Below are positions 12,106 to 44,100 of a stretch of 64,000 nucleotides of DNA, one piece after another. The translations under genes were made by a program, and so were the position numbers. Each line of letters opens with the position of its first letter. Positions within the stretch are counted from its first letter, which is position 1. The stretch comes from a virus, in the IMG/VR virus record IMGVR_UViG_3300042482_000285; one strand, given 5' to 3'. The notes under the pieces are model-generated. The model did no database searches and was not told the DNA's origin. It saw only the letters and a list, made by a program, of their open reading frames with translations.

Positions 12106-12127
12106 GGGCAATTTTAATTATAAAAAG

Positions 12128-14112: not shown

Positions 14113-14114
14113 AC

Positions 14115-14591: not shown

Positions 14592-14596
14592 AATAG

Positions 14597-15568: not shown

Positions 15569-15573
15569 CAGTA

Positions 15574-26700: not shown

Positions 26701-26790
26701 TACAAGAAAGCTCTTGAGTCAAAGTCTAAAAAGTCTGACAGTGGGTCTTCCAAAAATGGATCTATTGTAAGGTCTCTTAAAAATATCTAA
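23740..26790 (+). CDS. Gly-rich large virion protein (1016 aa); possible internal/ejection (cargo) protein
   Basis: Glycine-zipper-like tracts (GGGGGLGD; GGGDIASKLLTGITGENAGGNIGGTIGKTAGMFFGPVGSMVGQAAGQLIG). Long, lies in the cargo-gene block. Confidence 0.5.
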   Translation: MKAKMLKIAGVKSEKEFYKKYPTEEAFMAKHGKALKKAQIGSYIGGESGAGFQPMNFQEIYDNVDYGITGSTDEMRKEEELRKAQIKSAQEESGKGGGGGLGDIANVLQSKEFADALTSAAGGARKGKTIKKAQAGDQIEVEEKPGGDFFKQASKYAGPAGKLIEGFQQLKAEKEALKSAQQMQGVSDVVRQAANTRPEETQRRYLRPENIKNTGEEFFPIYGVGTNVLARNGASVGGGEIMNTFAPNTLYDDLGYEPLNDSERYKQFMHGGKMHKAATGLEMFAEAGGGDIASKLLTGITGENAGGNIGGTIGKTAGMFFGPVGSMVGQAAGQLIGTALDRKPQQIKKAKAATEKNIKATALQSGFQGGQAQNSSFMENGGTTSPYEWVSHTWQPQVIATFGEHKVKDLLTPPKDADMLRAGGHLKEYTPPSARAMSTERPDFQMGGELQTHWGGYAESMSQNPYLPDGGETIMFRGQSHDESDGKGNTGIGITYGDNPVEVERGEPAIKMRDGSGGDSSLVVFGNLKIPKLLGDPKAEGKNFKRYVEGLSKNENKQNTLVNKSITEIDEMDVQTPFDRLKFNSLQANVMGGNLKLKDIAQKKMDAAALQTAMNDTIEQFGLKTTDKGNIMAKLGANILKAQTGKDLPKLEQKDYEYLQGLYDVAEREKTGPTVLKFQKEFHRLAKPYAEKVISEEPTTSFGKKMGYPATDIRSNEDKIFGKRTVKYMSALKDAMKSPTPPEKESGLPPITLTTKKSETVPEKEKEGEEPVYPKRPGIINVINEVLPYLRPTDVEDLDPNQLTGEMYALATNQLEPVAAQTIQPQLTIPYDISLQDILNENRASLRSQQRLVGYNPALQSQLGAQEYAANQRVLGEQFRMNQAFKNQIYKENRDKLDQFGLKNLEILDRQYLRQAEAKSKTKATTQAALNSIAAKYAQNKLENRTLQVYENLYNYRFDPRFRATNMNPLVDFEAMIANASPSQIAEYKKALESKSKKSDSGSSKNGSIVRSLKNI

Positions 26791-26829
26791 CTAACTCAGT
26801 TATAGCGATTTACCAAAACTCGTTATAGC

Positions 26830-26862
26830 TCTTGGAAATTATAATTATTCATATTACATTTG
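26830..26862 (+). promoter_or_regulatory. Candidate promoter box TACATTTG (TAnnTTTG) with an upstream CTTG
   Basis: TACATTTG at 26855-26862, 16 nt before the ATG at 26878. CTTG at 26831-26834 (20-nt spacing). Direct repeat GTTATAGC at about 26803 and 26823 upstream. Confidence 0.3.
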
Positions 26863-26877
26863 CTAACTTAATGTACA

Positions 26878-29523
26878 ATGGCTTCATTTACAGACCTCAT
26901 ACCGCAATTTAACCCCTACATCCAGCAGCTTCCTGTGGAAGCTATGGTGACCGTAGGTATGGAGAAACAGAAGCGCTATGATGAGGGTTTACAGAAAATT
27001 CAGTCCCAAATTGAAAGGGTTGCTGGTCTAGATCTCTACAGAGATACGGACAAAGCATACCTACAGTCTAAACTGAATGAGCTTGGAAACAACCTAAAAG
27101 TCGTGGCTGCTGGTGACTTCTCTAACTTCCAATTGGTTAATTCTGTTTCTGGAATGACTAATCAGGTGGGGAAAGACCCTATTGTCCAGAACGCAGTTAC
27201 CTCTACAGCCAGACTTAGAAGAGAGTTTGCTTCCATGGAAGAATATAAAAAGAAGGGGAAGTCTGATAAAAACAACGAAGAGTTCTTCATGAATAAGGTG
27301 GTAAGACCTTATCTAGACGGACCACTTGATGCTTCTTTTACTGGAGAGTATTCTCCATACACCGACATCATGGGGTTGATTAGTGAGAACATAAAGGCTG
27401 CTGGAATAGACAAGTCAGTGGTACAGCAGATGTACCAAACTGACAATCAAGGCAGATTGATATTTGGAAAAAACGGTGAACCCCTCCCTGCTAGAACCAT
27501 GACTGAGATTGAGACATCAACCAACATGAAGCAGGTGAAGTCAATTGTAGAGAATGTGCTTAGCAGAGGAGATGTACAGAATCAACTTAATATCGATGGT
27601 TGGGCAAATACAAGAGGTATATCTCCACAGTCTGTCATAGATAACTATCGTGTAGAGTATAGTAAGAAGATAGGAGATGCTGATTCTGACATGTTAGAAA
27701 TCAACACCCTTCTTACAGGAAAGATGAATGGTGCTGAGAGGATGGTTCTGGATGAAAAGCTTAAGACTCTTAAGGACGTTAAACAGAAATACAAAGATCA
27801 ATACTTAGCTCTTGGTGAACTTGCACAGTCCAATCCTGATGCTTTTAAACAGGCATATTATAAAACTAACTACGAGAACAATCTTCTTGAACAGTTTACA
27901 AAATACGAAAGAAGCGAGAAGAACTTAAAGAGTCCTCTTACAGAACAACTTAACTGGGAAGCTGATTATGCCTTCAAAGAAAGGAAAGAAGCATTTGACC
28001 AGAAAATGGCTGTTCGTAAACAACAACTAGAGGAGAGTAAGTTTCAACTAGAAGGGTTCAAGTTTGAAGCTGATTATGAGTTTGATCAGTCTACAGGTAA
28101 GTGGAAAAAGAAACCAGATCCAAATAAACCATCTGATGGTTCACTACTTCGTCTCACTGCTGATGTTCCTGGAGAAGAGAACAGAAGCGCTGTACAAAGA
28201 CAAGAGGCCCAGATTCGTGGTATAGAACAAACCAATAGACAAAACGGAATGGATCTCATGTACAATTATTTGTACAAGTTGAATGATGGTAAAGATAGTA
28301 ACGGTCAACCTCTCACAAAAGCTGGTGTTGTTAAAACAGTTGAGAAGTTTGCAAAAGACAACAATGAAACTACAGATCAATTCTTAACCAGATGGATCTT
28401 GACTCTGAACAATAAAGCAAAAGAAAACGGTGTTAAAATGTCTGCCACAGACACAGAGTCTATTAACAACTTCAAAAGAAACCACTACAACTACACCACT
28501 CTACTAGCACTTGGAAAGATTGCTGACAATGAAGCATTTAAAGCCACTGGTATAGATCTTAACGATTATACCAAAACGCTTAGTCCAGTGAACGTTAAGT
28601 TGAAAGATGGTAGAAGTGTAACAATCAGTAAAGAAGACATCCTTGACTACATGCTCCTTATTAAGAATGATGATAAGGGTGCTGAAGATAGAATTGTAGC
28701 TAAGTATGGGTCTCTCAAAGACTTCCCTTTAAATACATACAAGGCACCTGGAATTCCCAATAGTGAGTTGGAAACTAGAAAAAACTTACAAAAGCTATCT
28801 GGCATGTTCTCAATCTATACAAAGGATTGGGATAAGTTCAAACAAGCTTCAAAGGCGAAGAACGACTATCTTGCTAAGGTGGTGAATACAGATGAGATGT
28901 TTTCTTTTGGTGAGGATGATGAAAAAGGAATGAAGTCTGCAAAGAATAAAGCTTCTGCGTTTATATCAGGAGCATCATCTTTGACAGGAAAGAATTATGA
29001 TAAGAGCAAGGCTTTAACAGCTTTAGCAGATCCTAATTCAAAAATATCTTTCAGGGCAAGTGCACCTTTTGAAGAAGGTGGACAATGGAAAGGTACAATG
29101 ATTATAACCACTGACAAGGGTGAAGTGATTGAGGCTGAGGTTCCTGTTCAAAAAGATTTTGAACAACTCACTGGATCTAAGTTCAATCCTTATAAATTCA
29201 ATCCCCTGAAAGCAAGAGCTTCAGTTAGTAAGTTTGGATCTACAAATCTTGGCGCTTTCACCACAGACTCTAGAGCTTGGGAAAGTGCTGCTATTGGATC
29301 TGAGGGTCTTGTCTCAATGAAAGATTCAAAGAAATATATTCCATTAGGTGCAGATCTAAATGTACTTCCTAATGGTGGATATACAGTGACAGCTTATTTT
29401 AAAGATAGGGCTACTGGTAAAATTTTAAATCCAGAGTTTAGTCGTATATACACTGTGGAAGAACAGGCTCAAGCTGACCTAGCTTTACTTACCGAATCTA
29501 TGCTTGATAAGGAGTTAAAATAA
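26878..29523 (+). CDS. Large virion protein (881 aa), coiled-coil rich
   Basis: Long ORF in the cargo block; no recognisable catalytic motif. Confidence 0.5.
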   Translation: MASFTDLIPQFNPYIQQLPVEAMVTVGMEKQKRYDEGLQKIQSQIERVAGLDLYRDTDKAYLQSKLNELGNNLKVVAAGDFSNFQLVNSVSGMTNQVGKDPIVQNAVTSTARLRREFASMEEYKKKGKSDKNNEEFFMNKVVRPYLDGPLDASFTGEYSPYTDIMGLISENIKAAGIDKSVVQQMYQTDNQGRLIFGKNGEPLPARTMTEIETSTNMKQVKSIVENVLSRGDVQNQLNIDGWANTRGISPQSVIDNYRVEYSKKIGDADSDMLEINTLLTGKMNGAERMVLDEKLKTLKDVKQKYKDQYLALGELAQSNPDAFKQAYYKTNYENNLLEQFTKYERSEKNLKSPLTEQLNWEADYAFKERKEAFDQKMAVRKQQLEESKFQLEGFKFEADYEFDQSTGKWKKKPDPNKPSDGSLLRLTADVPGEENRSAVQRQEAQIRGIEQTNRQNGMDLMYNYLYKLNDGKDSNGQPLTKAGVVKTVEKFAKDNNETTDQFLTRWILTLNNKAKENGVKMSATDTESINNFKRNHYNYTTLLALGKIADNEAFKATGIDLNDYTKTLSPVNVKLKDGRSVTISKEDILDYMLLIKNDDKGAEDRIVAKYGSLKDFPLNTYKAPGIPNSELETRKNLQKLSGMFSIYTKDWDKFKQASKAKNDYLAKVVNTDEMFSFGEDDEKGMKSAKNKASAFISGASSLTGKNYDKSKALTALADPNSKISFRASAPFEEGGQWKGTMIITTDKGEVIEAEVPVQKDFEQLTGSKFNPYKFNPLKARASVSKFGSTNLGAFTTDSRAWESAAIGSEGLVSMKDSKKYIPLGADLNVLPNGGYTVTAYFKDRATGKILNPEFSRIYTVEEQAQADLALLTESMLDKELK

Positions 29524-29528: not shown

Positions 29529-32500
29529 ATGCCAGAGTTACCTATTAATCTTTCAGGCACACCAACGTACAAGAGAGCAGCAGGAGCTTCTCCTGATAAC
29601 CTTTCTGTTGCTAATCGTGAATACAATCCATTGAACGATACATCTCTGAACTATGTAACACCAAAGAAATCAGGGTATGATGCTTCTAGCATAACTATGG
29701 CTGAAGCTGCTGCAGACAGAACTGGTAGATACAAAACCGTAATGTACGGTTATGATAATGAGGAAGCTGCTGCTCAACGTCAAAGCATCCTAGATAAAGG
29801 TGCTAATGGTATATTGAAAGGTGTAAACCTCACAGCCACTACTATCGCTGGAGGCTTTGGTATGTTATATGGGGCAGCTAGAGCTCCCTTCTCAGGAAGA
29901 CTTGCTGACATATGGGATAATAGTGTAATGAGAGGTTTGGATGAGTGGAACAAAGAAGTGGATGATAAAATCCTTCCAAACTACTATACAAAGGCTGAAA
30001 GAGATTCAGCTTGGTATTCTCCAGATAACTGGTTCACTGCTAATTTCCTTTTTGATAAACTAATCAAAAACTCAGGATATGCTGTAGGAGCAATGCTTAG
30101 CGGCAACATTGCGAATGCTGGACTTCTTAGAGCTGGTGCAGCTTTAGGGAGAGTGGCATCTGCTGGTGCTGTTGCTGCTGAATCATCTCAAGCATTCAAG
30201 ATATTTTCACCCTTGTTGAGAAATACATCAAGGGCTTTTAGTGCTGGTAAGAACATTGAAGCTGCTGCTGTTTTAGAGAAACAACTGTCCTCTATTGCAG
30301 ATGTCACTGCTAGGAGTTCTGAGCTTGCAAAGATTGCAAAGACTACAGGCACTTTTGCAGAGTTTGGTAATTCTGCTCGTAGAACAGCTATTGCTGCCTA
30401 CTCATCTGCTGGCGAAGCTTCCTTTGAAGCTTTACAAACAGGCAATCAGTTTAGAGATTCTCTGATTCAGGAATACGTAGATAAGTATGGTGAACAACCA
30501 GCTGGTGATGTTCTGGAAGAAATAAACAAAAGAGCTGACCAGGTTGGTAAAACATCATTCTTTGGTAACCTTGCACTTCTTGGTGCTACAGAATACGTAC
30601 AGCTTCCATATCTGTTAGGCTCATCCTACAGAAACACAAGACAGGCAGCTGGTGTATTTGCTGGAAAGGTGGACGATGTTCTTACAAAAACCCCTAGCAC
30701 TAAGCTAGGTAAGGTGTATGAAAAAGCCACAAGTGTTGGTAGATATGTATTTGATCCTAAGGAAGCAGGACAAGAGGTAGGTCAGTATGCCCTTCAAGTG
30801 GGTACACAAAACTACTTTAGCAAAGCAGCAGAGTCTGATGATGCTGATGTTTGGGTAGATGGGTTTCTGTATGGGTTTGTTGGTAAAGATGAAGAAGGAA
30901 AGGGAGAAGGTGCTCTTGTATCTAAAGAAGGTATGGAGAGTTTTCTTCTTGGTGGTCTTACAGGTGGACCTCTACAAGCTAGAGCAAAAGCCCAAGAAAA
31001 ACGTGCTAAAACTGAAAACACACAACGTTTTCTAGATCAAATTGGTAGAGCTCCTTCTTTTAAAGAAGCATTCCAAGACAGAATGAGTTCTGTAAACAGA
31101 GGTGTTGTTCTTCAACAACAACATGAAGCTGCTATTGTTACAGGTAATGAGCTTGAAGCTCGTGACTTGAAAACAGACATGATGCACAACTACTTGGCTC
31201 CTAGAATCAAGTATGGCAGATTTGATATGGTTATGGAGGACATTAGTGAACTTCGTGAAATGTCTTCCTCAGAAACTAACCTTGCAGAACTAAAAGCGCA
31301 AGGTATTGCTAACGTTAATGATACAGTTGATAGTTTCCAAAAGAGACTAAACAACTATGAGCGTGTAGCTAAGAACACGAACGAGATATACAACGGTTTG
31401 TACATAAGGTATTCTGGTGAAAGATTGGAAGATGGAAATCCTAAATACTCTCCTTATGTACTAGATAAGATGGCGTACGCAGCTAGTAAGATAGCTGACT
31501 ATGACCTTCGCATTCCACAGCTCAACAACATCCTAACAGAAAAAAGTATTATTGTTGGTAATCTATTGGATGATGTATTGAAAGGTAAAAGACCATCAAG
31601 ACAAGCTACAGCAGAGATACTTAACAACATAAATGACCTTTCTACAACCTCTGATGTTAAGGACGGTTTAAAAACTGCTTTACAAGACATCATTAGTCTT
31701 GGTGAGCGTAGGAGAATATTCATGGATGAGTATGAGGACATCAAACAAAACCCTCTCAACTATGAAACCGATCCTGAGTTTAATATAGGAGACAAGGTTG
31801 AAATTCCTGTAAGCGTAGGAGAGCCTGAGAAAAAGGTTGAGATTGGTAAAGAATACTCTCTCGATAAGTCAATGATGAAAGAGGGAAGTGCGCTTTACAT
31901 GGCTCCAAAGCTAACTGTGCTTTCTCAAACTCTTGGTGGTGAACTAGAAGTGAAGATGCCTGGAGGAAAGATTAAGTTCATTGCTCCTGAGGATCTAAAA
32001 GGCTACAACCTATCAGAAGAAGATAACACATCAAAAGAACTGGCAGACATTATGGATGAATCCATAGATGCTGTTCTTAAGAAGGAAGAGTATAAAGATC
32101 TTCCTGAGATGAAAGATGGCGACAGTAAACTTGGTTATATAAACTCTCTGGCAGATCAGGCTCTTACAGATGATGTAGAAGCTGAGTTCAATAGAAGAAC
32201 AGAAGAGTTTGTAAAACGTAAGGAAGAGGAAAGAAAGCAACAAGAAGAGCTTATTAAAAACAGAGCTGCTCTTGAGAAACAACAGACTGAGCTTGAAGCT
32301 AAGTCTGGTACAATAGCCACACCTCCTCCTCCCACTCCTGAAGAACTTCAAACATTAGCTGCTACACAGGGTAAGCTGAAGTCTGCTTTTAAACTATTCA
32401 TATCTGGCACCACTCCTACAGAGCGTGCTGATGAACCCGTACACATTAGAAACTCTAGAGAGTTCTTAAATAATGTAAAGAACTTTAAGAACAAAGGTAA

Positions 32501-35500
32501 TCTTGCAGCTATTCTTGTTACACCAAATCAAGAGGCAGCTCTAGGTTTGTCTGGTCTTACAGCATTATCTTATGGAACAGAAGATTCTAGTGATGCTACA
32601 AACGTAGAGACTGGTCTTGTAGCACAAGTGTTTGTAGAACAAGAGAATGGTAAAACATATTTTGTAAATAAGAACGGTGAGCGTATTGGTGAGATTGGTA
32701 AACCTGTTGATATTCAACAAGTTATATTCCAAACCATGCCCACCCCATCTTTATATGATAGATCTGGCAAGCCTAGGTTTAGAGCTGATGAGATGGCAGA
32801 TGCTGAAGCTGCTTCTAAAGGCTGGGCAGCTAAGAGAGTGGAGATATTTGAATCTCCTGCATTCCCTGTAAAAGCATATCGCTTTTCTATATCTAGAGGA
32901 ATTCCTGTTCTTAATGTTGTAGATGGTAGATATGAAAGAAACCAGATTGGAGATATCCTCATCCCTGAGAGCAAGATTGCTACACAGGAAGGATTGTTAC
33001 AAGTTGTTACACAGGGTAGCGTTGTTCACAACGGTGAGAACATTAAGTTTAACAATGGTCTTACAGTGTTGCAATATGGTGACACACTGCAGATTGTAAA
33101 CAACAACCGCCTTGGTGATAAGAAAGCCAACGCTGTCTACCTTGCTATAAAAACTATGATGGATGAGTTTCAGCAAACAAAGAAACTCAATCCAAACTTG
33201 GCTTCATATATTCAGAATGTTCTATTCTGGAGAAAGACTGCCACCACTTCTGGAAACCAAATCTTTATAAACACCTCCTCTGGAGAAGTGTCATTAGGAG
33301 GTAAGAATTACACTCCTGCAGATCTGGTAAATAAGAAAGATGAGATTGTGGACATGCTCAAAGAAGCATTCCATTCAATCAACAACTCTACACTTAGAGA
33401 TAGATTCTATGAACCTTTCTATGAATACAGCGTAGAAAATGACAAACTGGTTGAACAAGAATGGCCTAACTATCAGTCCTACCTTTTGAGCAAGAAGGGT
33501 AGAAGTGCTGATCAAACTCCACTTGTCACTTCTGTAGCTAAACCTACAGAGGCCATCCCTTATTCATACAAGCAGAAGTATGCTACACTCATTGACTTTG
33601 AACTCCCAATGATACAAGCCCCAGCTCCTGCAGCTGCTACAAAGGAAGCTGTAGCTGAGGGTAAAGCAACTCTTGGTGACTTTGTAATGGATGGTGAGAC
33701 AAAGAACACCTTTACAGGTTTCAAGACTGGTCCTATTGATTTCACAGGAACAATAGATGACAAGGGTGATATATCAGTGGATGTTCTGTCAAACGACACT
33801 ATTATAAATGCTGCTAAGAACGGTAAGCTTGTAAACGAAACAGTGGTTCCTGCTCTTAAAGAAGCTAATCAGTTTGATGCTTCTGCAGATGACATAGAGC
33901 TTGTTACAATGTTTGTAGCAGGTAAGCTTGCTATTGAACTTAAGGCTCTACAACCAGTTGCTGAAGTTAAAGAAGCAGCTCCTGTTTCTACAGATGCTAA
34001 AGCTGATATAAATAGAATAGTAGATGCATTTAATCCAGAGGATAATTTTAAAAGTCCAGTAGATGCGTGGAGCGTTGTTATTGAAGATGATAAAGGTAAT
34101 TTAGTAAAACCTGAAATAATTGTAGAAATAAAAGGAATCGATTATACTAAAAAAGAATTATTAGATATTGAAGATCCTGAAAACCCTGCTGTAGAAGAAA
34201 CTTTAAATGAAATTGACAGGCTTCAAAAATTACTTGAAGCAGAACTAGCTGCTTTAGAAGGAGCTAAACCTGCTGAAGGAACTTATAATCCAGAAGGAAC
34301 AGGTGCTCCTCAGGATGACTATATGAGAGTGGGAGTGAAAGAGGCTGGTGCTGAAATGCTTACAGGTGCACAGATAGAACTGTTCAAGATTTGGGCTGCA
34401 GAAAAGGTTCCTGGTATTCCATACGAGGTGTTAGACAATATTGTTAACACATATGACAACCAGAAAGCATGGGGTGTATTTGAGAACAATGTAGCCAAGT
34501 TCTACAAGGGTGCTCCTGGCACCACTCCATACCATGAAGTGTTTGAAGGTATATGGAAAGGTTTCCTCACTCCTGAACAAAGACAACTTATCCTTGATGA
34601 GTTCAAGTCTAAGACTGGTCAGTTTACAGACAGAGCCTCTGGCAAGAAGATAAACTATGCTGATGCTACAGATCAACAAGCTAAGGAAAGAATAGCTGAT
34701 GACTTTGGTGCATTTAGAGTGGGTAGACTTCCTGCACGTAGCTTGGGAGAAAGAGTGCTTAGATTTTTTAAAGACATCATAGAGTTCTTCAAGTCCTTTG
34801 TACAGAAACCTTCTATGAAGGAAGAGCTGTTCAAGGCTATTGAGGCTGGTAAGTTTAAAGATGCCATCCTCCCTGCTTCTATTGCTGCATCCACTCCTGA
34901 ATACATGCGCATCCCTGGACTTACAGAAACTCAAGCTTATGAGTTTGTTCAGGATATGACAGCTCGTGTAGCCAATTATATATTTGGAGACAGCAAGAAG
35001 TCTCTCTACGATATTAAGAAAATCACTGGCAAAGAAATCTTTGACAAGATTAAAGAAGCTTACGCAAGTAAAGCTGAGAACAAATATGAAAAGCTTGGCG
35101 AAGAGCGTTTCAACCAGTTGGTTATCAGAACAAAAGAAAAGCTTCGTACACTGGGTATCAACTTTAATGATGAGGACACAGTGGATATAAATGATGAGAA
35201 TGTTTCTAACAGAGACTATGCTCCTGAGCCATTCTCTACAGACTGGAAGAAGACATCTCCTTTCCCAGTTAAACTTGTAGCAGCTACCCTCCCTGAGGTA
35301 AAGCCTACAAACCAGCAAACTGAATCATCTCTAAAACTTCCTGAGCGTCAGACATCAAGTGTGTTGGGATTGAAACTGGCAAGTTTTGGTAGAGTGTTCA
35401 ATACATTGTTGGATAAGGTTTCTAATACAACCAATGTTAATTTGGTAAAGAACAAGCTTGTTGACCTTGCTAAAAGCGATGGTACATTTGTTCGTTTCTT

Positions 35501-38500
35501 CCAACGTATAGGTGGTGATTTAAATAATATGGACTTCAAACTCTCTAGTAGAGAGGACTGGAGACTATTTATTAATTTCTACCAGACATTTACCAAGCAG
35601 AAACCTAATGCTGACATCCAATACTTTGATGGCAACAGTGTATATACAGCTCCTGCTAACCAGTTCACTGCCAGCAAACTTTTACAAAGTGAGTGGTTTG
35701 AGAACATGAAGGCTTTGGCTGATGACCCATCATCTATTATAAAGAGGAAGAAGCAAAACTTTGAAGTGGACAAGAGTAAGTTACCTGGCGCAGTTCCTAA
35801 ACAACCTGAGGCAATGGTTAACTTCCTTGCAGATCTTGGTGTAAGTTTCCCTCTTAGTGCATACACATCCTTGAATCGTAATCAGAAAGATGATTTTGGT
35901 AAAGCTGTTGGAGGAATATACACATACATACAGAAGAACACTGAGGTGGGTACAGTTACAGGTAAGACACTTGGAATCAATCCTCAGTTGTCTGACCTAG
36001 CCAATCTCTACATCAAAGTGACCAATCCTTCTCAGGACACTACATATTTTGGTGTTGAGAACCAACGCATTCAATCTTACGCTGAGAATAACGTTCCTTC
36101 TGTAATGGAGAATGAGTTCAACAGTGTTGAGACAGTTGAAGAACTGAAGCAGCTCAGACCAGAACTTAACGATGTATTCTCTACAAACAGCATCACTCTT
36201 AAAGATGGTGGCAACTTCTACAATCTAGAAGGACAGAGATACAAAACAATCAAGGTTGGATACATCCAGGGTAGAAAGACAGTGGACACTGATAAAGGTG
36301 TTACCACTAGCAAGCTTACCCTTGGTGATCGTTTCACACAAGAGATTAATGAGAACCTGAATGGTGACTACTATATTCTGGTTCCTGCTGATGGATCTAC
36401 AGAATGGAAGATAAACCTAGGTAACCATATGTCATTTGTTGACATAGCTGGCGGAAGGGCTTGGAATAAGATTTACAGTATATTTAAAGGATATCTGCAG
36501 GATGAGGTGGCTCTTGCTCTTGATTATGAGAACAGAGAGAAACTTAAGAATGTTGGAGACAAGGCAAAACAACTTCGCTTCTTTAAGGAAATCTTAAAGG
36601 AAAAGAACGTTACTGCCATTGAGAAAATGATCGCTAATGGTTCTACACAGGACCAGATCAATGAGTATATTGATAAAAACATTGATGACATCAATGCTGC
36701 TGTAGCTGACTTCATCAATAATACAGTGGAAGAAACAACAACTCTTCTTATAAACAACAATCAGATATCTCAAGTTAAGGAAGGTCAATATAGCTATCCT
36801 GGGCTACAAGATAAGTTTGCAACAGCAAACGATATTAATAAGTTTAATATGTCTGAGCAGGACGTTAAGAATCTCTTAACGTTTGTAAATGCAAACTATG
36901 TCATCAACAACATAGAGTTGCATAAGTTTATATTTGGTGACCCATATGAGTTTGCTATAAAGAACGGTAAACTTGATGAGACCAAACGTATCAAAAGCTT
37001 CTTGTCTCCACGTAGGATTACATTTGACAGTCCTGAGTACAATAGCTTCCTTAATGATGACTACAATACAGCTAGTGGTGTTAAGCTCACTCCTAACGAT
37101 CCTGGTTATCATTTACATAAGTCTTACACAAACACTATAACACTGGCTGACATCAACCTGTCTAGCGAACTCTATCCTAAGATCAATGAAGCAGATGCTG
37201 CTTCGTTCATCATGGACACCACCTATAGAGAGGTGAAGCTGAAGAATGGTCAGTGGATTGATGAGATTTCAGAACCTTGGCATCAATGGCAAATGGCTTA
37301 TACAAGAAATAAGCTGGCTGCTAAAGGTGAATACACATACACAAGTGATAGATTACAAAAGGCTGATGCTGAATTAATTAGCAAACCTGAGCCTGCATTT
37401 GTAACAGAGGTTCTCAAACCTATCGTATCTGGTGTAAAAGCTGCTGAGACAAAGATTGACAATGTTCTAGACAAGTTCTCTCAAATGCCTCTATATTATA
37501 AAGACGTTGAGGGTAGAAATCTTGAGAAGCTCTACATCAAAATGTGGAAAGAGAACATTGGGTATGCTGTGTTTGAGAGCGGTAGAAAGCTGGGTGCTAC
37601 AGAATTGTACAGTTTGTATAACAGTAATGGAGACATCAACGATAAACCTTTCACCAAAGAACAGATTGTAAAGGTGCCTTGGAAGGCATATGGTATACAG
37701 GTGGAGAATGCATATGAGAACCCTAAGGATCAAACTCGTGGTTCTCAGTTGACAAAACTTTCTAGTCTTGATTTGTTTAGTGATGGTAAAGGTACAGAAC
37801 AAGCTAAGAAGGCTTACGAACGTAACCTTAAAGCTTTGAATGCTTTGCATGAGGACGGTTATAAAACTCTTCTTGACAAACTTGGCATTGAGGACTTGGG
37901 TGATGGTTTCCGTCTTGTAGATCCTGCAGCTGTTCAGGAAACTCTTGAGTATGAACTACTTAGAAGAGAGATGGCTGAGAATGCTAAAGACACAATCAAG
38001 CGTGATGAGAACGGTCAGTTTATTATTCCTTTTGAAGCTTCTCCTGCCTACAAACAAATAAAGGACATTCTGTTCTCAATAGTTAACAAGTCTCTTGTTA
38101 GTCCTAAGATGAACGGTGCTCCTAAGGTGCAGGTTCCTGTAACAGGATGGGAGAAACAAAATAGAAAGTCTGGCAAACCAAACCCAGAGCTGAAGTTCTA
38201 CACTAAGGAAGATCCTTATATGGAAGTGTTGCTTCCTCATTGGTTTAGAGGTAAGTTCAATAAGAAGAAGTTCCCTAACGACGAGGCTATTCTTAAATAC
38301 CTAAACACTAGTCCAGAGGGTAAGTCTATCCTCAGCGGTGTTGGCTTCCGTATTCCTACACAGTCTATGTCCTCTATTGAGGTGTTTAGAGTGAAAGGGT
38401 TCTTGCCACAATCTATGGGTGACACTATAGTGGTTCCTTCTGAAGTGACAGCAAAAGCTGGATCTGACTTTGATATAGATAAAATGAACACCTATCTCAA

Positions 38501-41141
38501 GTCTACATACATAGACAAGAATGGTGATATTAAACTGGTTAAATACCAAGGGTCTGAAGAAAGTACAAAAGAGTTCTTTGGTAAGGTGTTTGATGCTGCA
38601 CTTGACAAGCAGAAGGTGAACAAAGCTGAACTTCTTGAAGCTGTGCAAATTCTTTCCCTTGGACTAGAGGATTCAAATAACTTATTAGACAAATACGCAA
38701 ACCTTCTTGATGTTCTTCTAGAGGATGTGAAAGACTCCTCAGAGTTTGAGAACAAGGTGATGCAAGAACTTGAAAGACTGGGAGACGCTAACTTACAAGC
38801 TAAGTTGAAAAACAGGTTTGTAAATGATATGTACAAGCGCTCTTTAGAGAACGAGTATTACAATGCTCTTGAGGAAATGATCACCCTCCCTGAAAACTTT
38901 AGTCGTCTAATTGCTCCTGTAAACGATGCTGGTCTTTCTGATCTAGCTACAGAGCTTGATACTCTTAGAAAAGAAGATGAAACCACCATACCAGGTAGAT
39001 TGCTCAACCGCAACTACATGACTCCTCTTAGAAATGCATTTGTCACTGCTAAGAAGTGGGTGGGTATTTCTGCTGTAAACATTACAGGTCAGTCTCTTAC
39101 ACAGAAGGCTGAGGTGTATGTTGACCCTGCTAGAATTGAAGGATTGCCTGATTTTGACAAGAAGATACTTGGAGATGGTAAGGTGCTGCTTCCTCACAAC
39201 AAGGTGGTTGTTGATGGTAATGAGTACATATCTATCTCTGGTAAGATGACTGAAGATGGTACACAGTACATATCTGATAGGCTCTCTGGATATGCCACAT
39301 CATTTGTGGATGTAGCCAAAGATCCTTACATCATGAAGATCATTGGTTCTAATTCTGTTGTAGGCACATTCATGTTCCTTGAGAGAATAGGCGTTGGTGA
39401 AAACACCATATGGTTCCTTAACCAACCTATCATCAGAGAATACCTAAGCTACCTAGATAGCATTGGTAAGAAAGGATTGTTTGGTAAAAAGGATGGTGAA
39501 TACATCAGAAGCATGTTCCCAACATCTGTAAAAGATGCAACATTTGATCCTAGTACACTAAAAGAGAACATCAGCAAGTATTACGATAAGCAGTTCAATA
39601 ATGAGGACAATGCTACTCAACAAGCAATATTCACTGAGTTCCTGAAGTATGCTAAAATGGCTGAGTATAGCTTTAAGCTTACACAGGCTTCCAACTATGA
39701 CACTACTAAATTTAGGAGTGGTGATGAGTTTAGTAGGAAACAAACCAGAACAGCAACAGCTAGAGACAAAAACATTTTCTCATCTGTAGATAAGGTGTTA
39801 GACTCTTCCTTTATAGGAAACCAGGCTAAGTTTATTGACAGCGCTATGTCATCCTTGGGAGAGATTATCAAAACTGAGAAGGATGACTTTACTATCATCA
39901 CAAACGATGTTATTAAACCATTCCTAGAGAACGAGTTCCTTAGTGCAGAAGACTTTAACAAGGTGGCTAGCAAAGCTAAGACATCGTTCATTGACTATAT
40001 TGTGCAGACACAGAGTTCTTTGAACACAGAGATAGAAGCTCTTGTTGTGTCAAACAGTTCTGTAGCAGACCAATTGGCTCAAGCTAAGAAAAGACGTCCT
40101 GAGATGAAACTTCTTAATGAGCTACAGGTGGTAAGTTCTGATAGAACTGGAGGAGCTAAAAGCATAAGGCTTAGAGCTAATCTGAAGGATGCTTTTGATA
40201 CAGACATGTATACAGACATGATGAGAGAGTTGAAACTGGTAGAACCAGAGTTGTACAACGGTCTTGTTAAACTGTCTCTGCTTCAGGGTACATATCAAAC
40301 AGCTATATCTATTAGAAATATTATACCTGTAGAGGATTTGTCTCCAATGATTAAACCTGTAATTGATTCTCTCACATCTACAGAAGAGGTGAAGAACTTT
40401 ACCAAAGGAGCGTTCTACAGAAATAACTGGAAGGACAATACAATTGTACCTTTTGCACAGCCTAAATTCTTTGCAGCTTCTGAAACACCTTTAGGAGAAG
40501 ATCCTTCTGGTAATGAGATATATCAATACTATTCACCTCTGTTTCCTAACATAGAATACTTTGGTATACAATCTTCAGATCGTAAAGTGTTGTTACTCAG
40601 TGAGATATACAATTCTGCTGAAGTGAAGTATGACTTTGTAAAGGTACCTCGTGTTGTAACGGACAAGAAAACTGGTGAGATGATTGACATGGTAACTGGT
40701 CAAACTGTAACCCGTGCAATGTTTGCTAGACAAAAAGCCCAAGGTGATTTGTCTCTGAAGGATGTGTTTGGTTATCAAAAGGTGAAATACGCTAACGGTG
40801 AACCTCTTGTAACATTTAAAGGTGACCATGTATACAAACTGGTAAACCTGTATGGTGATGGTCAGCTTGTTTCTGAATACTATCTAGAGAGCAAACCTTC
40901 TGTTCTGAACAACGGCACTATAAAAGTGGATAACGAAATTCCTGATGCTGAATTGATAAAGTTCTTTGGCGCTGAGGAAGTTGTTGTACCTTTACAAGAT
41001 ACTAAGGTGACTACACCATCTGGGAACTTAAAGCTGAAAGATGGTAACGAATATCCAATATCAGATATAAACGCACAACTATTGGAGAAGATTGGGTATA
41101 CACCTAAAGAAATTGGTAAACTTTTAAAAGCAATCTGTTAA
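29529..41141 (+). CDS. Giant (3870 aa) multidomain virion protein containing a two-barrel RNA-polymerase-like catalytic motif (candidate virion RNAP)
   Basis: AGSDFDIDKMNTYL (D2980-F-D-I-D at nt 38466-38480) matches the universal DPBB catalytic loop NADFDGD(E/Q)MN of beta-prime/Rpb1. The size and location among structural genes match the RNAP-containing giant proteins of crAss-like phages. Confidence 0.6.
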   Translation: MPELPINLSGTPTYKRAAGASPDNLSVANREYNPLNDTSLNYVTPKKSGYDASSITMAEAAADRTGRYKTVMYGYDNEEAAAQRQSILDKGANGILKGVNLTATTIAGGFGMLYGAARAPFSGRLADIWDNSVMRGLDEWNKEVDDKILPNYYTKAERDSAWYSPDNWFTANFLFDKLIKNSGYAVGAMLSGNIANAGLLRAGAALGRVASAGAVAAESSQAFKIFSPLLRNTSRAFSAGKNIEAAAVLEKQLSSIADVTARSSELAKIAKTTGTFAEFGNSARRTAIAAYSSAGEASFEALQTGNQFRDSLIQEYVDKYGEQPAGDVLEEINKRADQVGKTSFFGNLALLGATEYVQLPYLLGSSYRNTRQAAGVFAGKVDDVLTKTPSTKLGKVYEKATSVGRYVFDPKEAGQEVGQYALQVGTQNYFSKAAESDDADVWVDGFLYGFVGKDEEGKGEGALVSKEGMESFLLGGLTGGPLQARAKAQEKRAKTENTQRFLDQIGRAPSFKEAFQDRMSSVNRGVVLQQQHEAAIVTGNELEARDLKTDMMHNYLAPRIKYGRFDMVMEDISELREMSSSETNLAELKAQGIANVNDTVDSFQKRLNNYERVAKNTNEIYNGLYIRYSGERLEDGNPKYSPYVLDKMAYAASKIADYDLRIPQLNNILTEKSIIVGNLLDDVLKGKRPSRQATAEILNNINDLSTTSDVKDGLKTALQDIISLGERRRIFMDEYEDIKQNPLNYETDPEFNIGDKVEIPVSVGEPEKKVEIGKEYSLDKSMMKEGSALYMAPKLTVLSQTLGGELEVKMPGGKIKFIAPEDLKGYNLSEEDNTSKELADIMDESIDAVLKKEEYKDLPEMKDGDSKLGYINSLADQALTDDVEAEFNRRTEEFVKRKEEERKQQEELIKNRAALEKQQTELEAKSGTIATPPPPTPEELQTLAATQGKLKSAFKLFISGTTPTERADEPVHIRNSREFLNNVKNFKNKGNLAAILVTPNQEAALGLSGLTALSYGTEDSSDATNVETGLVAQVFVEQENGKTYFVNKNGERIGEIGKPVDIQQVIFQTMPTPSLYDRSGKPRFRADEMADAEAASKGWAAKRVEIFESPAFPVKAYRFSISRGIPVLNVVDGRYERNQIGDILIPESKIATQEGLLQVVTQGSVVHNGENIKFNNGLTVLQYGDTLQIVNNNRLGDKKANAVYLAIKTMMDEFQQTKKLNPNLASYIQNVLFWRKTATTSGNQIFINTSSGEVSLGGKNYTPADLVNKKDEIVDMLKEAFHSINNSTLRDRFYEPFYEYSVENDKLVEQEWPNYQSYLLSKKGRSADQTPLVTSVAKPTEAIPYSYKQKYATLIDFELPMIQAPAPAAATKEAVAEGKATLGDFVMDGETKNTFTGFKTGPIDFTGTIDDKGDISVDVLSNDTIINAAKNGKLVNETVVPALKEANQFDASADDIELVTMFVAGKLAIELKALQPVAEVKEAAPVSTDAKADINRIVDAFNPEDNFKSPVDAWSVVIEDDKGNLVKPEIIVEIKGIDYTKKELLDIEDPENPAVEETLNEIDRLQKLLEAELAALEGAKPAEGTYNPEGTGAPQDDYMRVGVKEAGAEMLTGAQIELFKIWAAEKVPGIPYEVLDNIVNTYDNQKAWGVFENNVAKFYKGAPGTTPYHEVFEGIWKGFLTPEQRQLILDEFKSKTGQFTDRASGKKINYADATDQQAKERIADDFGAFRVGRLPARSLGERVLRFFKDIIEFFKSFVQKPSMKEELFKAIEAGKFKDAILPASIAASTPEYMRIPGLTETQAYEFVQDMTARVANYIFGDSKKSLYDIKKITGKEIFDKIKEAYASKAENKYEKLGEERFNQLVIRTKEKLRTLGINFNDEDTVDINDENVSNRDYAPEPFSTDWKKTSPFPVKLVAATLPEVKPTNQQTESSLKLPERQTSSVLGLKLASFGRVFNTLLDKVSNTTNVNLVKNKLVDLAKSDGTFVRFFQRIGGDLNNMDFKLSSREDWRLFINFYQTFTKQKPNADIQYFDGNSVYTAPANQFTASKLLQSEWFENMKALADDPSSIIKRKKQNFEVDKSKLPGAVPKQPEAMVNFLADLGVSFPLSAYTSLNRNQKDDFGKAVGGIYTYIQKNTEVGTVTGKTLGINPQLSDLANLYIKVTNPSQDTTYFGVENQRIQSYAENNVPSVMENEFNSVETVEELKQLRPELNDVFSTNSITLKDGGNFYNLEGQRYKTIKVGYIQGRKTVDTDKGVTTSKLTLGDRFTQEINENLNGDYYILVPADGSTEWKINLGNHMSFVDIAGGRAWNKIYSIFKGYLQDEVALALDYENREKLKNVGDKAKQLRFFKEILKEKNVTAIEKMIANGSTQDQINEYIDKNIDDINAAVADFINNTVEETTTLLINNNQISQVKEGQYSYPGLQDKFATANDINKFNMSEQDVKNLLTFVNANYVINNIELHKFIFGDPYEFAIKNGKLDETKRIKSFLSPRRITFDSPEYNSFLNDDYNTASGVKLTPNDPGYHLHKSYTNTITLADINLSSELYPKINEADAASFIMDTTYREVKLKNGQWIDEISEPWHQWQMAYTRNKLAAKGEYTYTSDRLQKADAELISKPEPAFVTEVLKPIVSGVKAAETKIDNVLDKFSQMPLYYKDVEGRNLEKLYIKMWKENIGYAVFESGRKLGATELYSLYNSNGDINDKPFTKEQIVKVPWKAYGIQVENAYENPKDQTRGSQLTKLSSLDLFSDGKGTEQAKKAYERNLKALNALHEDGYKTLLDKLGIEDLGDGFRLVDPAAVQETLEYELLRREMAENAKDTIKRDENGQFIIPFEASPAYKQIKDILFSIVNKSLVSPKMNGAPKVQVPVTGWEKQNRKSGKPNPELKFYTKEDPYMEVLLPHWFRGKFNKKKFPNDEAILKYLNTSPEGKSILSGVGFRIPTQSMSSIEVFRVKGFLPQSMGDTIVVPSEVTAKAGSDFDIDKMNTYLKSTYIDKNGDIKLVKYQGSEESTKEFFGKVFDAALDKQKVNKAELLEAVQILSLGLEDSNNLLDKYANLLDVLLEDVKDSSEFENKVMQELERLGDANLQAKLKNRFVNDMYKRSLENEYYNALEEMITLPENFSRLIAPVNDAGLSDLATELDTLRKEDETTIPGRLLNRNYMTPLRNAFVTAKKWVGISAVNITGQSLTQKAEVYVDPARIEGLPDFDKKILGDGKVLLPHNKVVVDGNEYISISGKMTEDGTQYISDRLSGYATSFVDVAKDPYIMKIIGSNSVVGTFMFLERIGVGENTIWFLNQPIIREYLSYLDSIGKKGLFGKKDGEYIRSMFPTSVKDATFDPSTLKENISKYYDKQFNNEDNATQQAIFTEFLKYAKMAEYSFKLTQASNYDTTKFRSGDEFSRKQTRTATARDKNIFSSVDKVLDSSFIGNQAKFIDSAMSSLGEIIKTEKDDFTIITNDVIKPFLENEFLSAEDFNKVASKAKTSFIDYIVQTQSSLNTEIEALVVSNSSVADQLAQAKKRRPEMKLLNELQVVSSDRTGGAKSIRLRANLKDAFDTDMYTDMMRELKLVEPELYNGLVKLSLLQGTYQTAISIRNIIPVEDLSPMIKPVIDSLTSTEEVKNFTKGAFYRNNWKDNTIVPFAQPKFFAASETPLGEDPSGNEIYQYYSPLFPNIEYFGIQSSDRKVLLLSEIYNSAEVKYDFVKVPRVVTDKKTGEMIDMVTGQTVTRAMFARQKAQGDLSLKDVFGYQKVKYANGEPLVTFKGDHVYKLVNLYGDGQLVSEYYLESKPSVLNNGTIKVDNEIPDAELIKFFGAEEVVVPLQDTKVTTPSGNLKLKDGNEYPISDINAQLLEKIGYTPKEIGKLLKAIC

Positions 41142-44100
41142 TGGCAACCTGTCCAAATACAAATCTTGACTCTTGGAAAGAACTAGTGGCTTCTAAAGGA
41201 GAGGATCTTGCCTACTATCTGTGGGACAAGTATGATGGTAATATTCCTGAGGATGCAACTGTGCCCACTCCTGATTCTCCTGTAGCATCTCCTAAGACCA
41301 TTGCGTTGATCAAAGACTTCATCAAGCGCATTGGTGTGGACATTAAGGTGTTGAAACAGATTGAGGTGAATGGTGTGAAGTATGATGACAAGGGTGCTGC
41401 ACTTGTGATGCAGAAACTAATACAAGTGGTTGAAGGTAAAGAGGCTGAAGCTCTTCCTGAGGAAGCAATGCACTTTGCTGTGTCAATTATCAAACAGACC
41501 AACCCAGCATTATACAAGAAACTACTAGGTGAAATTAACAACTATCGCATTCTAAAGGATGTATTTGCTACATATAGCAAAGATCCAAACTACCAAATAG
41601 ATGGTAAACCTGATGTTGTCAAACTGAAGGAAGAAGCTATTGCTAAGGTGTTGACACAGGTAGTTATAGATAAGAACGAGGGTAACACTGAAACCCTTCA
41701 GAAGATAGCTAATGTAGAAAGCTGGTGGCAACAGATTATAAGAGCCATCAAGAATCTATTTGCTAAAAGTGGATTTGACCAACTCGCTATAGACATCATG
41801 TCTGGTAATGAGATTGGTACAGCTGAGGATATCAGAGAGGAGCAAGACGCTATATTTTTCTCAAAGAATCCTCAAGAATCTATATTCGATAGGATTAGAG
41901 AGGTGTCTGGAAGAATTGAGAAGAAGGAGGATGGTTATTACATTGATGGTAAGAAGATAAACAGAAGGGTTACAGACATTGTAAAAGATTGGTATTCTAG
42001 AAGGTTTAACGATAAAGATCTTACCAAAAGTGAATATGCTAAAGCTGTAGATGATTTAAAGCGTGAGAAGGGTACAGCTGGACACGCTGATATAGAGAAC
42101 ATGTTCAAGGTGTTTGTAGATGAGAACGGTTACCTAAGAGAAACTCCTTTGGATGACTCTACGTATGTATCTCAGCTCAACCCATCTAATAGAGACATGT
42201 ACAACTCTCTAAAGGAAAATATGGAAGCTAGACTTAAGTCTTTCCCTCAGGGTACAAGATTTATGTCTGAGATAACTGTGTACGATGCTAAACGTGGACT
42301 GGCTGGTACAATAGACTTCCTTGCAGTGACACCAACAGGTGAGACTAGCATATTAGACTGGAAGTTCATGGATCTGAATGTAAACAAGTATACAGACATT
42401 CCTTGGTATAAGGTGAATGCTTGGAGACAGCAGATGGAGCAATATAAACTCATCCTACAAAATGTCTATGGTGTTAAACCTCAGGACTTCAGACAAACCA
42501 GGATGATTCCTATACAGGCTGTGTATTCACAGGGTAATGCCAAAATTAACATTCTACCTCAGTTGCTTAGCGTTAAGATAGGAGATGTGAATGTTAAGAA
42601 CATTGCAGATGACTACTTGCTTCCTGTAGGACTGGAAGGTGAAAAGACTGGTAATAAAAAGATTGATGCATTGATTGAGAAACTCAATGCTGTATATAAG
42701 AAGTTCTCTGAGAAGAAAGTGCTTCCTTCAGAGAAGTTAAGTAAGGCTGAGCAACTTAATGAGCTGTTTACAGCTATCAGGCAGTTGCAAATTAAGGGCA
42801 ACCTTAAACCTTTGCTTAGACAGGCTAAGATATTGAACAAGCAAATCCAGAAAACTATAGAAACTTACAACAGTAAGTTTGCTGGTCAAGATCCTTCACA
42901 GTTTAGCCAGAAAGAAATAAACAGTTTTGCTGAGGAATTACAGACAGCTCAGGATGCTATCAACACTTACGTTAATCTCGACACAGACCTTAGAGGTCTA
43001 TTTGTAGGAGAATTATCTGAGGAAGATAGAAAACTTAAGGATGATTTAAGAGATGCTGCTGATGATGCCAGAGATATACAATCAACTTTGAATGACATCC
43101 TTAATGATTACACTTCTGAGATTATTGCTAAGAGTGAAGGGGTGGATAGTTTACTGTCTCCTGAAAAGATTGTAAAGGGTATTACAAAACTGTTTGCATC
43201 TACAGCCACCATACAGCTAAAAGCTATGGAAGTGTTGTACAAGAAAGCAAATAAAGCGTTTGCTCTTGCAGGTTATGATACACTAACAGAAAGCAAAAAG
43301 CTACAATCTCTGAAAGAGGCCTATGATAAATGGGCTGCTTCAAAAGGACTTTCACAGAAAGACTACTTTAACATTATTAAGAAGAAGAAGAGTAACGAAC
43401 TGATTGATGAATTCAATCCTGAGTTCTATTCCACCCTTAAGAAGAACATAGAAGAGAAAGATTCTCAGTGGGTTAGGGACAACATCAATGTGTCTGAGTA
43501 CAATGAGTTCTTAAAGAAAAAGTTAGAAGAGGAGTTTGAGAGAATAGAGAACAAGCACAGAGTGGGTACAGAAGTGGAAATTAATTCTGAAATCACTCGT
43601 GAGAAGAATCAGGCAAAGTTGCTCTACAATACATCCACTACAGAAAGTGCTGGATGGTTGCTATACGACTTTGTGAAACTGTTCCCTAAACGTGAGACCT
43701 GGGAGTCTAAAGAATGGAAAGAGCTTAATAATCCTGCCAATAAACCTGCTCTAGATTTCTACAACTACATCAAAGAGAGAAACGAAATCTACCGTGAGTT
43801 GGGATATATAGGAAGAGCTGAGGCTCGTACATTCCTTCCATTTGTAAGAAAGAGTCTTGTAGAGAAACTTATTACAGGAGGGAACGTAAGACTTGGCGAA
43901 CAGTTCTTTAGAGATATATCAATCGATGAGGGTGATATAGGATATGGAAAGATTGATCCTCTAACAGGTAAACCTATAGATGCGCTTCCTAAGTATTTCA
44001 CAAAAGAAGTGGAAGGGGAAGTGAGTGATGACTTGTTTAGAACTATGGCTATGTACAATGAGTCTGCCATCAGATACCAATATCTCAGTGAGATTGAGGA

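Follow-up and report, generated by a model that had tools for sequence, protein, structure and literature searches.

Viral DNA of the window, the whole stretch of 64,000 nucleotides analysed here (IMG/VR record IMGVR_UViG_3300042482_000285), contains one unbroken, ATG-started reading frame of 3870 amino acids with the octapeptide DFDIDKMN at residues 2980 to 2987. The locus thus raises the question of whether this giant gene specifies an RNA polymerase (RNAP) that travels in the virion, or a structural protein with an accidental likeness to an RNAP catalytic loop. A sequence-only reading had reported the motif in this position and frame, which we could confirm, and had proposed a two-barrel RNAP of the crAss-like type, an interpretation that is supported by homology to the polymerases gp66 of phage phi14:2 and gp50 of crAss001 as well as by fold matches. 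The ORF very probably encodes a single-chain, two-barrel DNA-dependent RNAP of a divergent crAss-like phage that is packaged into the virion and fused to an orthologue of gp67 (phi14:2) and gp47 (crAss001). The coordinates of all features are compiled in Table 1.

Table 1. Predicted features of the giant ORF and its neighbours (positions in the window; aa numbering of the 3870-aa protein)
Feature	Position (nt)	Strand	Basis
Whole ORF, 3870 aa: gp67/gp47-like module fused to gp66/gp50-like virion RNA polymerase	29529..41141	+	
N-terminal module, aa 1-1480, orthologous to phi14:2 gp67 / crAss001 gp47	29529..33968	+	hhalign, conservation profile
Hypervariable linker between modules, aa ~1481-1584	33969..34280	+	conservation profile, indel
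RNA polymerase module, aa ~1585-3870, ~2290 aa	34281..41138	+	BLASTP/hhalign to gp66, gp50
Zincin-like domain, aa ~1620-1778; Y-H1669-E1670-V-F-E1673 at nt 34533-34547	34386..34862	+	relatives' alignment, gp47 homology
DPBB-B, first double-psi beta-barrel, beta-like, aa ~2630-2725	37416..37703	+	AF2, gp66 1020-1095 alignment
Helical connector between barrels, aa ~2726-2860 (gp66 Connector 1095-1238)	37704..38108	+	alignment, AF2
DPBB-A, second double-psi beta-barrel, beta-prime-like, aa ~2863-3003	38115..38537	+	alignment, AF2, Foldseek, Pfam
Catalytic metal-binding loop DFDIDKMN (D2980, D2982, D2984)	38466..38489	+	gp66 alignment, invariant columns
Bridge-helix region, aa ~3148-3192 (gp66 1529-1559); R3168, K3175, G3179 invariant	38970..39104	+	
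Trigger-loop region, aa ~3228-3271 (gp66 1598-1636); conserved FVDxAKDPYI	39210..39341	+	
1562-aa RNAP-associated protein, orthologue of phi14:2 gp65 / crAss001 gp49	41141..45829	+	hhalign, BLASTP
Two upstream ORFs, 1016 + 881 aa, in place of crAss001 cargo gp45/gp46	23740..29523	+	position only

The pattern D-x-D-x-D occurs only once in the protein, namely in DFDIDKMN. Based on the protein's own composition, the number of DFDxD pentapeptides expected by chance is ~0.05 in 3870 amino acids and ~0.26 over all listed ORFs of the window, so that the pentapeptide taken alone argues only weakly against coincidence. Pfam, PHROG and NCBIfam searches of the whole protein, of eight segments and of the neighbouring ORFs returned nothing above threshold. 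Both the non-zero expectation and the silence of the curated libraries could be claimed for a chance DFDID in a structural or ejection protein devoid of polymerase activity. It is the context that lifts the motif beyond chance: the loop can be matched position by position to K-T-GSDFDIDKM of phi14:2 gp66 within an alignment of 690 residues (E 5e-22), residues D2980, F2981, D2982, D2984 and K2985 are invariant among 51 homologues, and the Pfam family RNA_pol_Rpb1_2 of cellular RNAP largest subunits (PF00623) hits the same spot (aa 2941-2997), albeit at a sub-threshold score of 13.4 bits (E 0.09; gathering cut-off 25.3 bits). Homology over 690 to 900 residues to a solved, biochemically active RNAP, with both barrels, bridge helix and trigger loop kept and the catalytic residues invariant, makes a fortuitous motif exceedingly improbable, and this reading is refuted by the phmmer match to PDB entry 6VR4 and the Foldseek fold matches detailed below. 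The sequence-only reading had regarded the trailing Met-Asn as part of the conserved loop. The loop itself stands on its homology to gp66, but its Met is no family feature, since KMN is present in just three of 127 representatives and most relatives have DFDIDKLN. Ile at loop position 4, where cellular enzymes have Gly, is a crAss-like signature (Drobysheva et al., bioRxiv 10.1101/2020.03.07.982082).

The homology that carries the identification extends far beyond the loop. In a phmmer search against the PDB, residues 2624-3315 match gp66 of the Cellulophaga phage phi14:2 (6VR4, E 5e-22), the only sequence match that was obtained for the RNAP region. BLASTP aligns residues 2421-3348 with gp66 832-1711 (E 8e-31, 984 columns), hhalign extends this homology back to residue 2155 (gp66 515), and residues 2373-3796 correspond to crAss001 gp50 826-2323 (hhalign, E 4e-40), which has the loop DFDVDKLY. 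Identity to the characterised enzymes is 21-25%. With tblastn, 135 phage records were matched, all of them Crassvirales or crAss-like wherever named and many annotated as putative RNA polymerase; a near-identity DNA search with the region encoding aa ~2160-3870 found no match among 50,697 phage records. The AF2 model of the RNAP region (pLDDT 86.5, pTM 0.83) retrieves 6VR4 as the best Foldseek match (E 2.8e-30, TM 0.69); further two-barrel RNA polymerases come next, among them P23-45 gp96, AR9 and, ahead of Rpb1/beta-prime, QDE-1. The proposed affiliation with a QDE-1/two-barrel type holds for the fold (QDE-1, E 4e-5) and not as membership by sequence, as phmmer against the PDB detected no sequence similarity to QDE-1 or cellular RdRPs and the resemblance is structural only.

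Two domains of the double-psi beta-barrel (DPBB) type reside in a single chain and are separated by a connector of ~140 residues, which is the arrangement expected of crAss-like virion RNAPs. The region aligned to the first barrel (gp66 1020-1095) sits just upstream of the gp66 Connector. Three lysines of the first barrel (K2630, K2649, K2687) are invariant in the 51 homologues and are probably the equivalents of the beta-subunit lysines. Bridge helix and trigger loop are predicted from the alignment as well, the latter with D3261 invariant in the same 51 homologues. The lack of a second barrel, or of an RNAP profile hit around the motif, had been named in advance as grounds for abandoning the polymerase interpretation; both barrels were found, the 6VR4 match spans the motif, and the interpretation survives. 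With a profile of aa 1560-2450, the alignment to gp66 starts no earlier than residue 515. For the N-terminal ~500 residues of gp66, including its cleft-blocking element (aa 196-233), this hhalign profile found no alignable counterpart in a region whose model is of low confidence; the mechanism of auto-inhibition may therefore differ from that of gp66.

What accounts for the additional length of the protein? The sequence-only reading had invoked fused ejection or channel domains. A fusion it is, and the partner is the orthologue of a virion gene that lies separately upstream in phi14:2 and crAss001, gp67/gp47; neither an ejection nor a channel domain could be recognised, and a hydropathy scan revealed no convincing transmembrane helix. 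Residues 67-482 align with gp67 53-399 (hhalign, prob 97.8, E 7e-13) and residues 75-746 with crAss001 gp47 82-822 (prob 99.9, E 9e-38). The former similarity is seen only with a profile built from 23 relatives, while a BLASTP comparison of the N-terminal part with gp67 is not significant, and phmmer of aa 1-2200 against the PDB yields nothing but coiled-coil noise. The homology to gp67/gp47 covers aa 67-746 (nt 29727-31766), i.e. about half of the N-terminal module, and the remainder is conserved within the clade only. The linker that follows shows the lowest conservation (~45% gaps in the 23 relatives) and differs by an indel of 92 amino acids from a relative of 91-94% identity. The apparent split of the closest relative into ORFs of 2189 and 1568 aa is artefactual, stemming from a stretch of Ns in the scaffold, and no real gene break.

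The genes around the fusion point to the same group of phages. The portal (phrog_6547, E 6e-98), the major capsid protein (phrog_11589, E 8e-31) and crAss-type tail PHROGs are all found in the window, and those tblastn matches of the portal that carry a name are Crassvirales or crAss-like phages, with identities of at most ~27%. Judged by gene content, the window is a Crassvirales structural module with the RNAP located at its end, between gp67/gp47-like and gp65/gp49-like parts. Flanking ORFs of 1016, 881 and 1562 aa had been described as cargo-like. All three exist, and the 1562-aa protein is the gp65/gp49 orthologue according to hhalign with gp65 987-1368 (prob 95, E 3.5e-8) and crAss001 gp49 695-1258 (prob 99.4, E 3e-21) and BLASTP with the 1714-aa protein of cr108_1 (E 4e-39); the HExxH zincin motif of gp65 is absent from this ORF and its clade-mates. 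For the 1016- and 881-aa ORFs, the likeness to cargo is one of position only: they lack PHROG and Pfam hits, tblastn finds nothing in crAss-like phages, and hhalign of the N-terminal module with crAss001 gp45/gp46 was negative. Virion packaging of the polymerase is suggested by its homology to proteins that were found in virions by mass spectrometry. By analogy with the studied homologues, the protein would be synthesised late in infection and loaded as cargo into the capsid, forced down the tail in a partly unfolded state before or along with the DNA, and refolded in the host cell, where D2980, D2982 and D2984 would bind Mg2+ and sustain an early-gene transcription that resists rifampicin.

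The size of the protein, which had been considered unusual, was overrated. IMG/VR harbors 30 related loci in which a DFDID ORF of 3650-5100 aa precedes one of 1500-2300 aa, and the DFDxD ORFs of the relatives range from 3650 to 5650 aa. Among the best 149 representatives, 125 exceed 3000 aa, and with 3870 aa the present protein lies below the median of 4265 aa for these large representatives. RNAP genes and fused RNAP polyproteins of up to ~6000 aa are already in the literature.

It is a separate question whether the 430-kDa product acts intact. That the chain is cut at the linker, yielding a gp67-like portion and a ~2300-aa RNAP, is somewhat more likely than that it stays intact, and the cut is possibly made by the zincin-like domain at the module junction. 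The relatives share H1669, E1670 and E1691 of this domain without exception and E1720 nearly so, and in its spacing H-E-x-x-[H/E]-(17)-E is reminiscent of the HExxH+E of the thermolysin type. The domain is homologous to crAss001 gp47 2103-2292 (HEAFH; hhalign, prob 97.4, E 1e-11), and the canonical HExxH occupies the same site in 19 of 127 representatives, in crAss001 gp47 and in cr108_1. It is always located at the module boundary with the gene breaks of different lineages falling on either side: it is situated at the C-terminus of gp47 in crAss001 and at the N-terminus of a ~2400-aa RNAP in P0102, P0109 and P0200. Its local AF2 topology comprises a hairpin, the motif helix and a second helix with E1720 (pLDDT 60-88). 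These observations are in line with a self-processing polyprotein, in which a gluzincin-like junction metalloprotease cuts in cis or after ejection and releases the ~2300-aa RNAP; cleavage of polyproteins and activation of the RNAP by a zincin-like domain of the block have been proposed by Drobysheva et al. (bioRxiv 10.1101/2020.03.07.982082). Against it stands that the second His is replaced by Glu here (HEVFE) and in 107 of the 127 representatives, so that the sequence departs from the zincin/gluzincin signature of HExxH plus a downstream Glu and matches no known zincin. Junction-domain profiles matched no peptidase among Pfam families and PDB sequences and bore no resemblance to the part of phi14:2 gp65 that contains HEIMH, and the overall model of aa 1560-2420, computed from 13 homologues only, is poor (pLDDT 52, pTM 0.27) and gave noise in Foldseek. 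The sole PDB match of the junction profile, a designed coiled coil, is spurious. Self-processing is thus a tentative proposal, and it refines rather than replaces the best explanation; that the domain, or its Glu-for-His variant, serves the crAss 'transcription block' as its maturation protease and switches on the injected RNAP by cutting the polyprotein is a still bolder idea that we deem unlikely.

The same exchange of His for Glu could indicate that the domain is catalytically dead and has to be weighed in favor of a giant enzyme that acts unprocessed, with the N-terminal module serving packaging, ejection or envelope anchoring and the junction domain being structural or metal-binding only. 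Maintenance of the fusion in hundreds of 50%-identity clusters agrees with such an enzyme, as do the precedents of giant uncleaved virion RNAPs with non-catalytic flanks, the 3500-aa N4 vRNAP and P23-45 gp96. However, phi14:2, crAss001 and several metagenomic relatives keep the two modules in genes of their own, and the covalent linkage of the modules is therefore dispensable for function; moreover, the linker is hypervariable in length and sequence. A product that is cut at the linker is slightly favored over a permanently intact one.

The gene represents an already well-described kind of enzyme, a crAss-like packaged RNAP that is fused to the protein of its neighbour, and the conserved zincin-like junction domain is the one mildly new item. 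The main value of the analysis is annotation, as Pfam, PHROGs and NCBIfam leave the protein unnamed. It firmly places a divergent phage from the environment, with a portal that shares ~27% identity with classified Crassvirales, within the crAss-like RNAP-injection strategy, and documents that fused gp67-RNAP proteins of 3600-5600 aa are the rule rather than an oddity in a large metagenomic clade. Junction domain and hypervariable linker together provide a concrete target for studying the processing and activation of giant cargo polyproteins, a question left by Drobysheva et al.

Among known systems, QDE-1 and RDR2, the RNA-dependent RNA polymerases of eukaryotic RNAi, differ in their biological role and have DxDGD with the Gly. 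The N4 vRNAP of Schitoviridae is a T7-like single-subunit enzyme and not a two-barrel one. P23-45 gp96 is a vRNAP fused to the tape measure that lacks the clamp and the C-terminal region. In crAss001, the N-terminal module and the junction domain both correspond to gp47, the RNAP to gp50 and the downstream ORF to gp49; these proteins are capsid cargo, termed 'RNA polymerase-associated proteins' in the case of gp47, gp49 and gp50 (Bayfield et al. 2023, PMC10172136). In contrast to the present locus, they are encoded by three separate genes, gp49 and gp50 on the opposite strand, and the break between the genes comes behind the zincin-like domain, which has HExxH there and HEVFE here. The order of N-terminal module, H-E-x-x-[H/E] domain and RNAP is shared with cr108_1 (YP_010111144 / YP_010111145), which aligns with residues 1575 to 3678, but its ORF is broken right at DFDID's first Asp. 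Among fused relatives, the length of the linker varies, and so does the set of C-terminal appendages, of which NADAR is an example. The closest functional reference is phi14:2, whose gp65, gp66 and gp67 are all virion proteins that are fused as a polyprotein in some phages, and whose gp66 is packaged, moved into the host and transcribes the early genes (Drobysheva et al., bioRxiv 10.1101/2020.03.07.982082 / Nature 2021). Unlike the 2180-aa gp66, the 3870-aa enzyme is fused to the gp67 orthologue and its RNAP is preceded by an H-E-x-x-E domain without detectable counterpart in gp66; like gp66, it combines two DPBBs, connector, bridge helix and trigger loop in a single chain, has the identical GSDFDIDKM with Ile instead of the cellular Gly, and is placed between gp67-like and gp65-like virion coding units.

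The 3870-aa protein is encoded in a single unbroken reading frame with an ATG start and carries the motif DFDIDKMN at aa 2980-2987 (nt 38466-38489), which confirms the position and frame given in the sequence-only reading. A scan of the whole protein recovered this DFDID as the only D-x-D-x-D copy. Given the protein's own amino-acid composition, the chance expectation is about 0.05 DFDxD per 3870 residues, and the pentapeptide by itself is therefore insufficient to claim an RNA polymerase (RNAP). The RNAP interpretation was borne out by homology around the motif: a phmmer search with aa 2001-3870 as query, run over all PDB chains, returned essentially a single match, 6VR4 (E 5e-22). This is gp66 of phi14:2, a crAss-like phage of Cellulophaga; gp66 is a virion-packaged DNA-dependent RNA polymerase (Drobysheva et al., bioRxiv 10.1101/2020.03.07.982082). 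The alignment pairs aa 2624-3315 with gp66 1020-1681 and places the catalytic loop KAGSDFDIDKM opposite KTGSDFDIDKM; BLASTP widens it to aa 2421-3348 versus gp66 832-1711 (E 8e-31), and a profile alignment reaches back to aa ~2155 versus gp66 515. A tblastn search of 50,697 phage genomes matched 135 records; every named one is a Crassvirales or crAss-like phage (Bacteroides, Flavobacterium, Cellulophaga and uncultured gut phages), and "putative RNA polymerase" is the annotation of many of the records. Pfam RNA_pol_Rpb1_2 gave a below-threshold match exactly at the DFDID motif; searches of PHROGs and NCBIfam gave none. Across 51 homologues, the invariant residues include D2980, F2981, D2982, D2984 and K2985, three lysines of the first barrel (K2630, K2649 and K2687) and, in the bridge region, R3168, K3175 and G3179.

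The AlphaFold2 model of aa 2401-3500, for which 50 homologues were used, is of high confidence (pLDDT 86.5, pTM 0.83), and a Foldseek comparison with the PDB ranks 6VR4 first (E 2.8e-30, TM 0.69), followed by QDE-1 (E 4e-5) and then by bacterial beta-prime and eukaryotic Rpb1. It shows two barrels (aa ~2630-2725 and ~2863-3003), each made of six strands plus two helices and linked by a helical connector; the second double-psi beta-barrel that had been sought is thus present. The functional landmarks of gp66 (Drobysheva et al.) were mapped onto the protein (see table). These results support its membership in a structurally and biochemically characterised RNAP family, i.e. a rediscovery and not a new kind of enzyme.

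Features of the window and of the 3870-aa protein (nt positions unless marked aa)
Feature	Position	Strand	Remark
Portal	95-2677		phrog_6547, E 6e-98
MCP	4647-6200		
SbcD/Mre11-like DNA repair exonuclease gene	12128-13384	+	phrog_704, E 5e-48
881-aa ORF	26878-29523	+	
3870-aa ORF	29529-41141	+	
Inter-module linker	33969-34280		
Junction domain, ~160 aa	aa ~1620-1778; 34386-34862	+	conserved, directly after linker
Connector	aa ~2726-2860	+	mapped from gp66 Connector 1095-1238
Catalytic DFDID	aa 2980-2984	+	mapped from gp66 1361-1365
Bridge helix	aa ~3148-3192	+	mapped from gp66 1529-1559
Trigger loop	aa ~3228-3271	+	mapped from gp66 1598-1636
3390-aa ORF	46310-56482	+	

The window as a whole represents a structural module of crAss type, with portal, MCP, tail and virion protein genes, among them one for a 1871-aa structural protein. 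The portal shows at most 27% identity to any classified Crassvirales and near-identical DNA is missing from the phage collection, which is indicative of a divergent, probably environmental, lineage. The exonuclease gene lies in the middle of this module, with tail and virion protein genes on either side. Next to the 3870-aa ORF, those of 1016, 881 and 1562 aa are present as originally described. The first two occupy the position of the cargo proteins gp45 and gp46 in the Bacteroides phage crAss001 (NC_049977), to which no homology is detectable. The 1016-aa ORF had zero matches in the homology search; the N-terminal 340 aa of the 881-aa ORF resemble a hypothetical protein of the Leptolyngbya cyanophage Lbo-JY46 (25% identity, E 2e-14) and nothing in classified crAss-like phages. 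The 3390-aa ORF combines long Gly-Thr-Ser repeats of the collagen-like G-x-y type (Pfam Collagen, E 1e-52) with a Peptidase_S74 intramolecular-chaperone domain at its C-terminus, and probably encodes a tail fibre of great length; the GC content there is 0.43-0.49 (elsewhere 0.39-0.41), with a GC skew of ~0.27.

The extra length of the polymerase reflects a fusion. A conservation scan of 23 full-length relatives revealed two conserved blocks separated by a gappy, unconserved stretch (aa ~1500-1600). Compared with the closest relative, which is otherwise 91-94% identical, this linker differs by a 92-aa indel (counterpart at ~7794-7827 of the relative's sequence), and conservation restarts at YNPEGTGAPQDDYMRVG. 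That relative's gene only looks split (2189 + 1568 aa) because its scaffold contains a run of N; this is not a real gene break. The C-terminal block (~2290 aa) is similar in size to gp66 (2180 aa). The N-terminal block matches phi14:2 gp67 (aa 67-482 versus 53-399; prob 97.8, E 7e-13) and crAss001 gp47 (aa 75-746 versus 82-822; prob 99.9, E 9e-38) and is homologous to the virion protein whose gene lies just upstream of the polymerase in cultured crAss-like phages. The downstream 1562-aa ORF is the orthologue of phi14:2 gp65 (E 3.5e-8), crAss001 gp49 (E 3e-21) and a 1714-aa protein of the uncultured crAss-like phage cr108_1 (NC_055878; E 4e-39). Taken together, these homologies identify the locus as the conserved crAss "transcription block" of three proteins, the first two of them fused.

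The size, initially considered unusual for a crAss-like enzyme, turned out to be the norm in the clade: of the 149 top-ranking representative proteins in a full HMMER scan, 125 are longer than 3000 aa (median 4265 aa, maximum 5650 aa), and in 30 related IMG/VR loci a DFDID ORF of 3650-5100 aa is followed by one of 1500-2300 aa. Drobysheva et al. reported that gp65/66/67 orthologues form one huge fused polyprotein in some phages, and a review names RNAP genes reaching ~6000 aa as a hallmark of the crAss-like group. In some close relatives (P0003, P0013 and P0066) the polyprotein bears a C-terminal NADAR appendage (PF08719), possibly an injected domain with an accessory or anti-defence role; one such relative is 77% identical overall (81% in the core), and the equivalent site of the window (~41020-41138) has just 40 aa of tail beyond the conserved ...IKFFG. 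In cr108_1, a classified crAss-like phage, the fused gene is split into ORFs 7978-16881 and 17172-19568, directly after the first Asp of DFDID, and the next ORF continues at the following residue after a ~290-nt gap. The break is reminiscent of those described within DxDxD in Zeta-group phages and may reflect an intron, a different insertion or a mistake in assembly.

The only less ordinary feature of the protein is the junction domain between the two blocks. Its motif Y-H1669-E1670-V-F-E1673 is followed by E1691, which is invariant, and E1720, which is nearly so. Among 127 representatives the motif lies 1305-1539 residues upstream of DFDxD and reads HExxE in 107, HExxH in 19 and HExxN in one; HEVFE of the window corresponds to HESFH in cr108_1, and the C-terminal HEAFH domain of crAss001 gp47 is homologous (prob 97.4, E 1e-11). 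The gene break follows the domain in crAss001 and precedes it in several ~2400-aa metagenomic RNAPs. The pattern resembles that of HExxH+E gluzincins; a zincin-like activator in the transcription block was raised as a speculation by Drobysheva et al. The domain profile had no match in Pfam or the PDB and no similarity to the HEIMH region of gp65, and the AlphaFold2 model covering it is poor (pLDDT 52). The domain may cleave the polyprotein, a reading of fairly low probability.

In phi14:2, gp66 is a virion component that accompanies the DNA into the cell and performs early-gene transcription that is resistant to rifampicin (Drobysheva et al.), and crAss001 gp47, gp49 and gp50 belong to the capsid cargo and are believed to be extruded through the tail partly unfolded (Bayfield et al., PMC10172136). 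By homology, the 3870-aa protein would be made late, packed in the capsid, ejected and then refolded, with D2980, D2982 and D2984 binding Mg2+ where the two barrels meet. Bayfield et al. called the crystallised phi14:2 protein a homologue of gp49. In the comparison made here, gp49 corresponds to phi14:2 gp65 and the 1562-aa ORF, and the RNAP module matches crAss001 gp50 (57485-64723), which carries DFDVDKLY at aa 1483.
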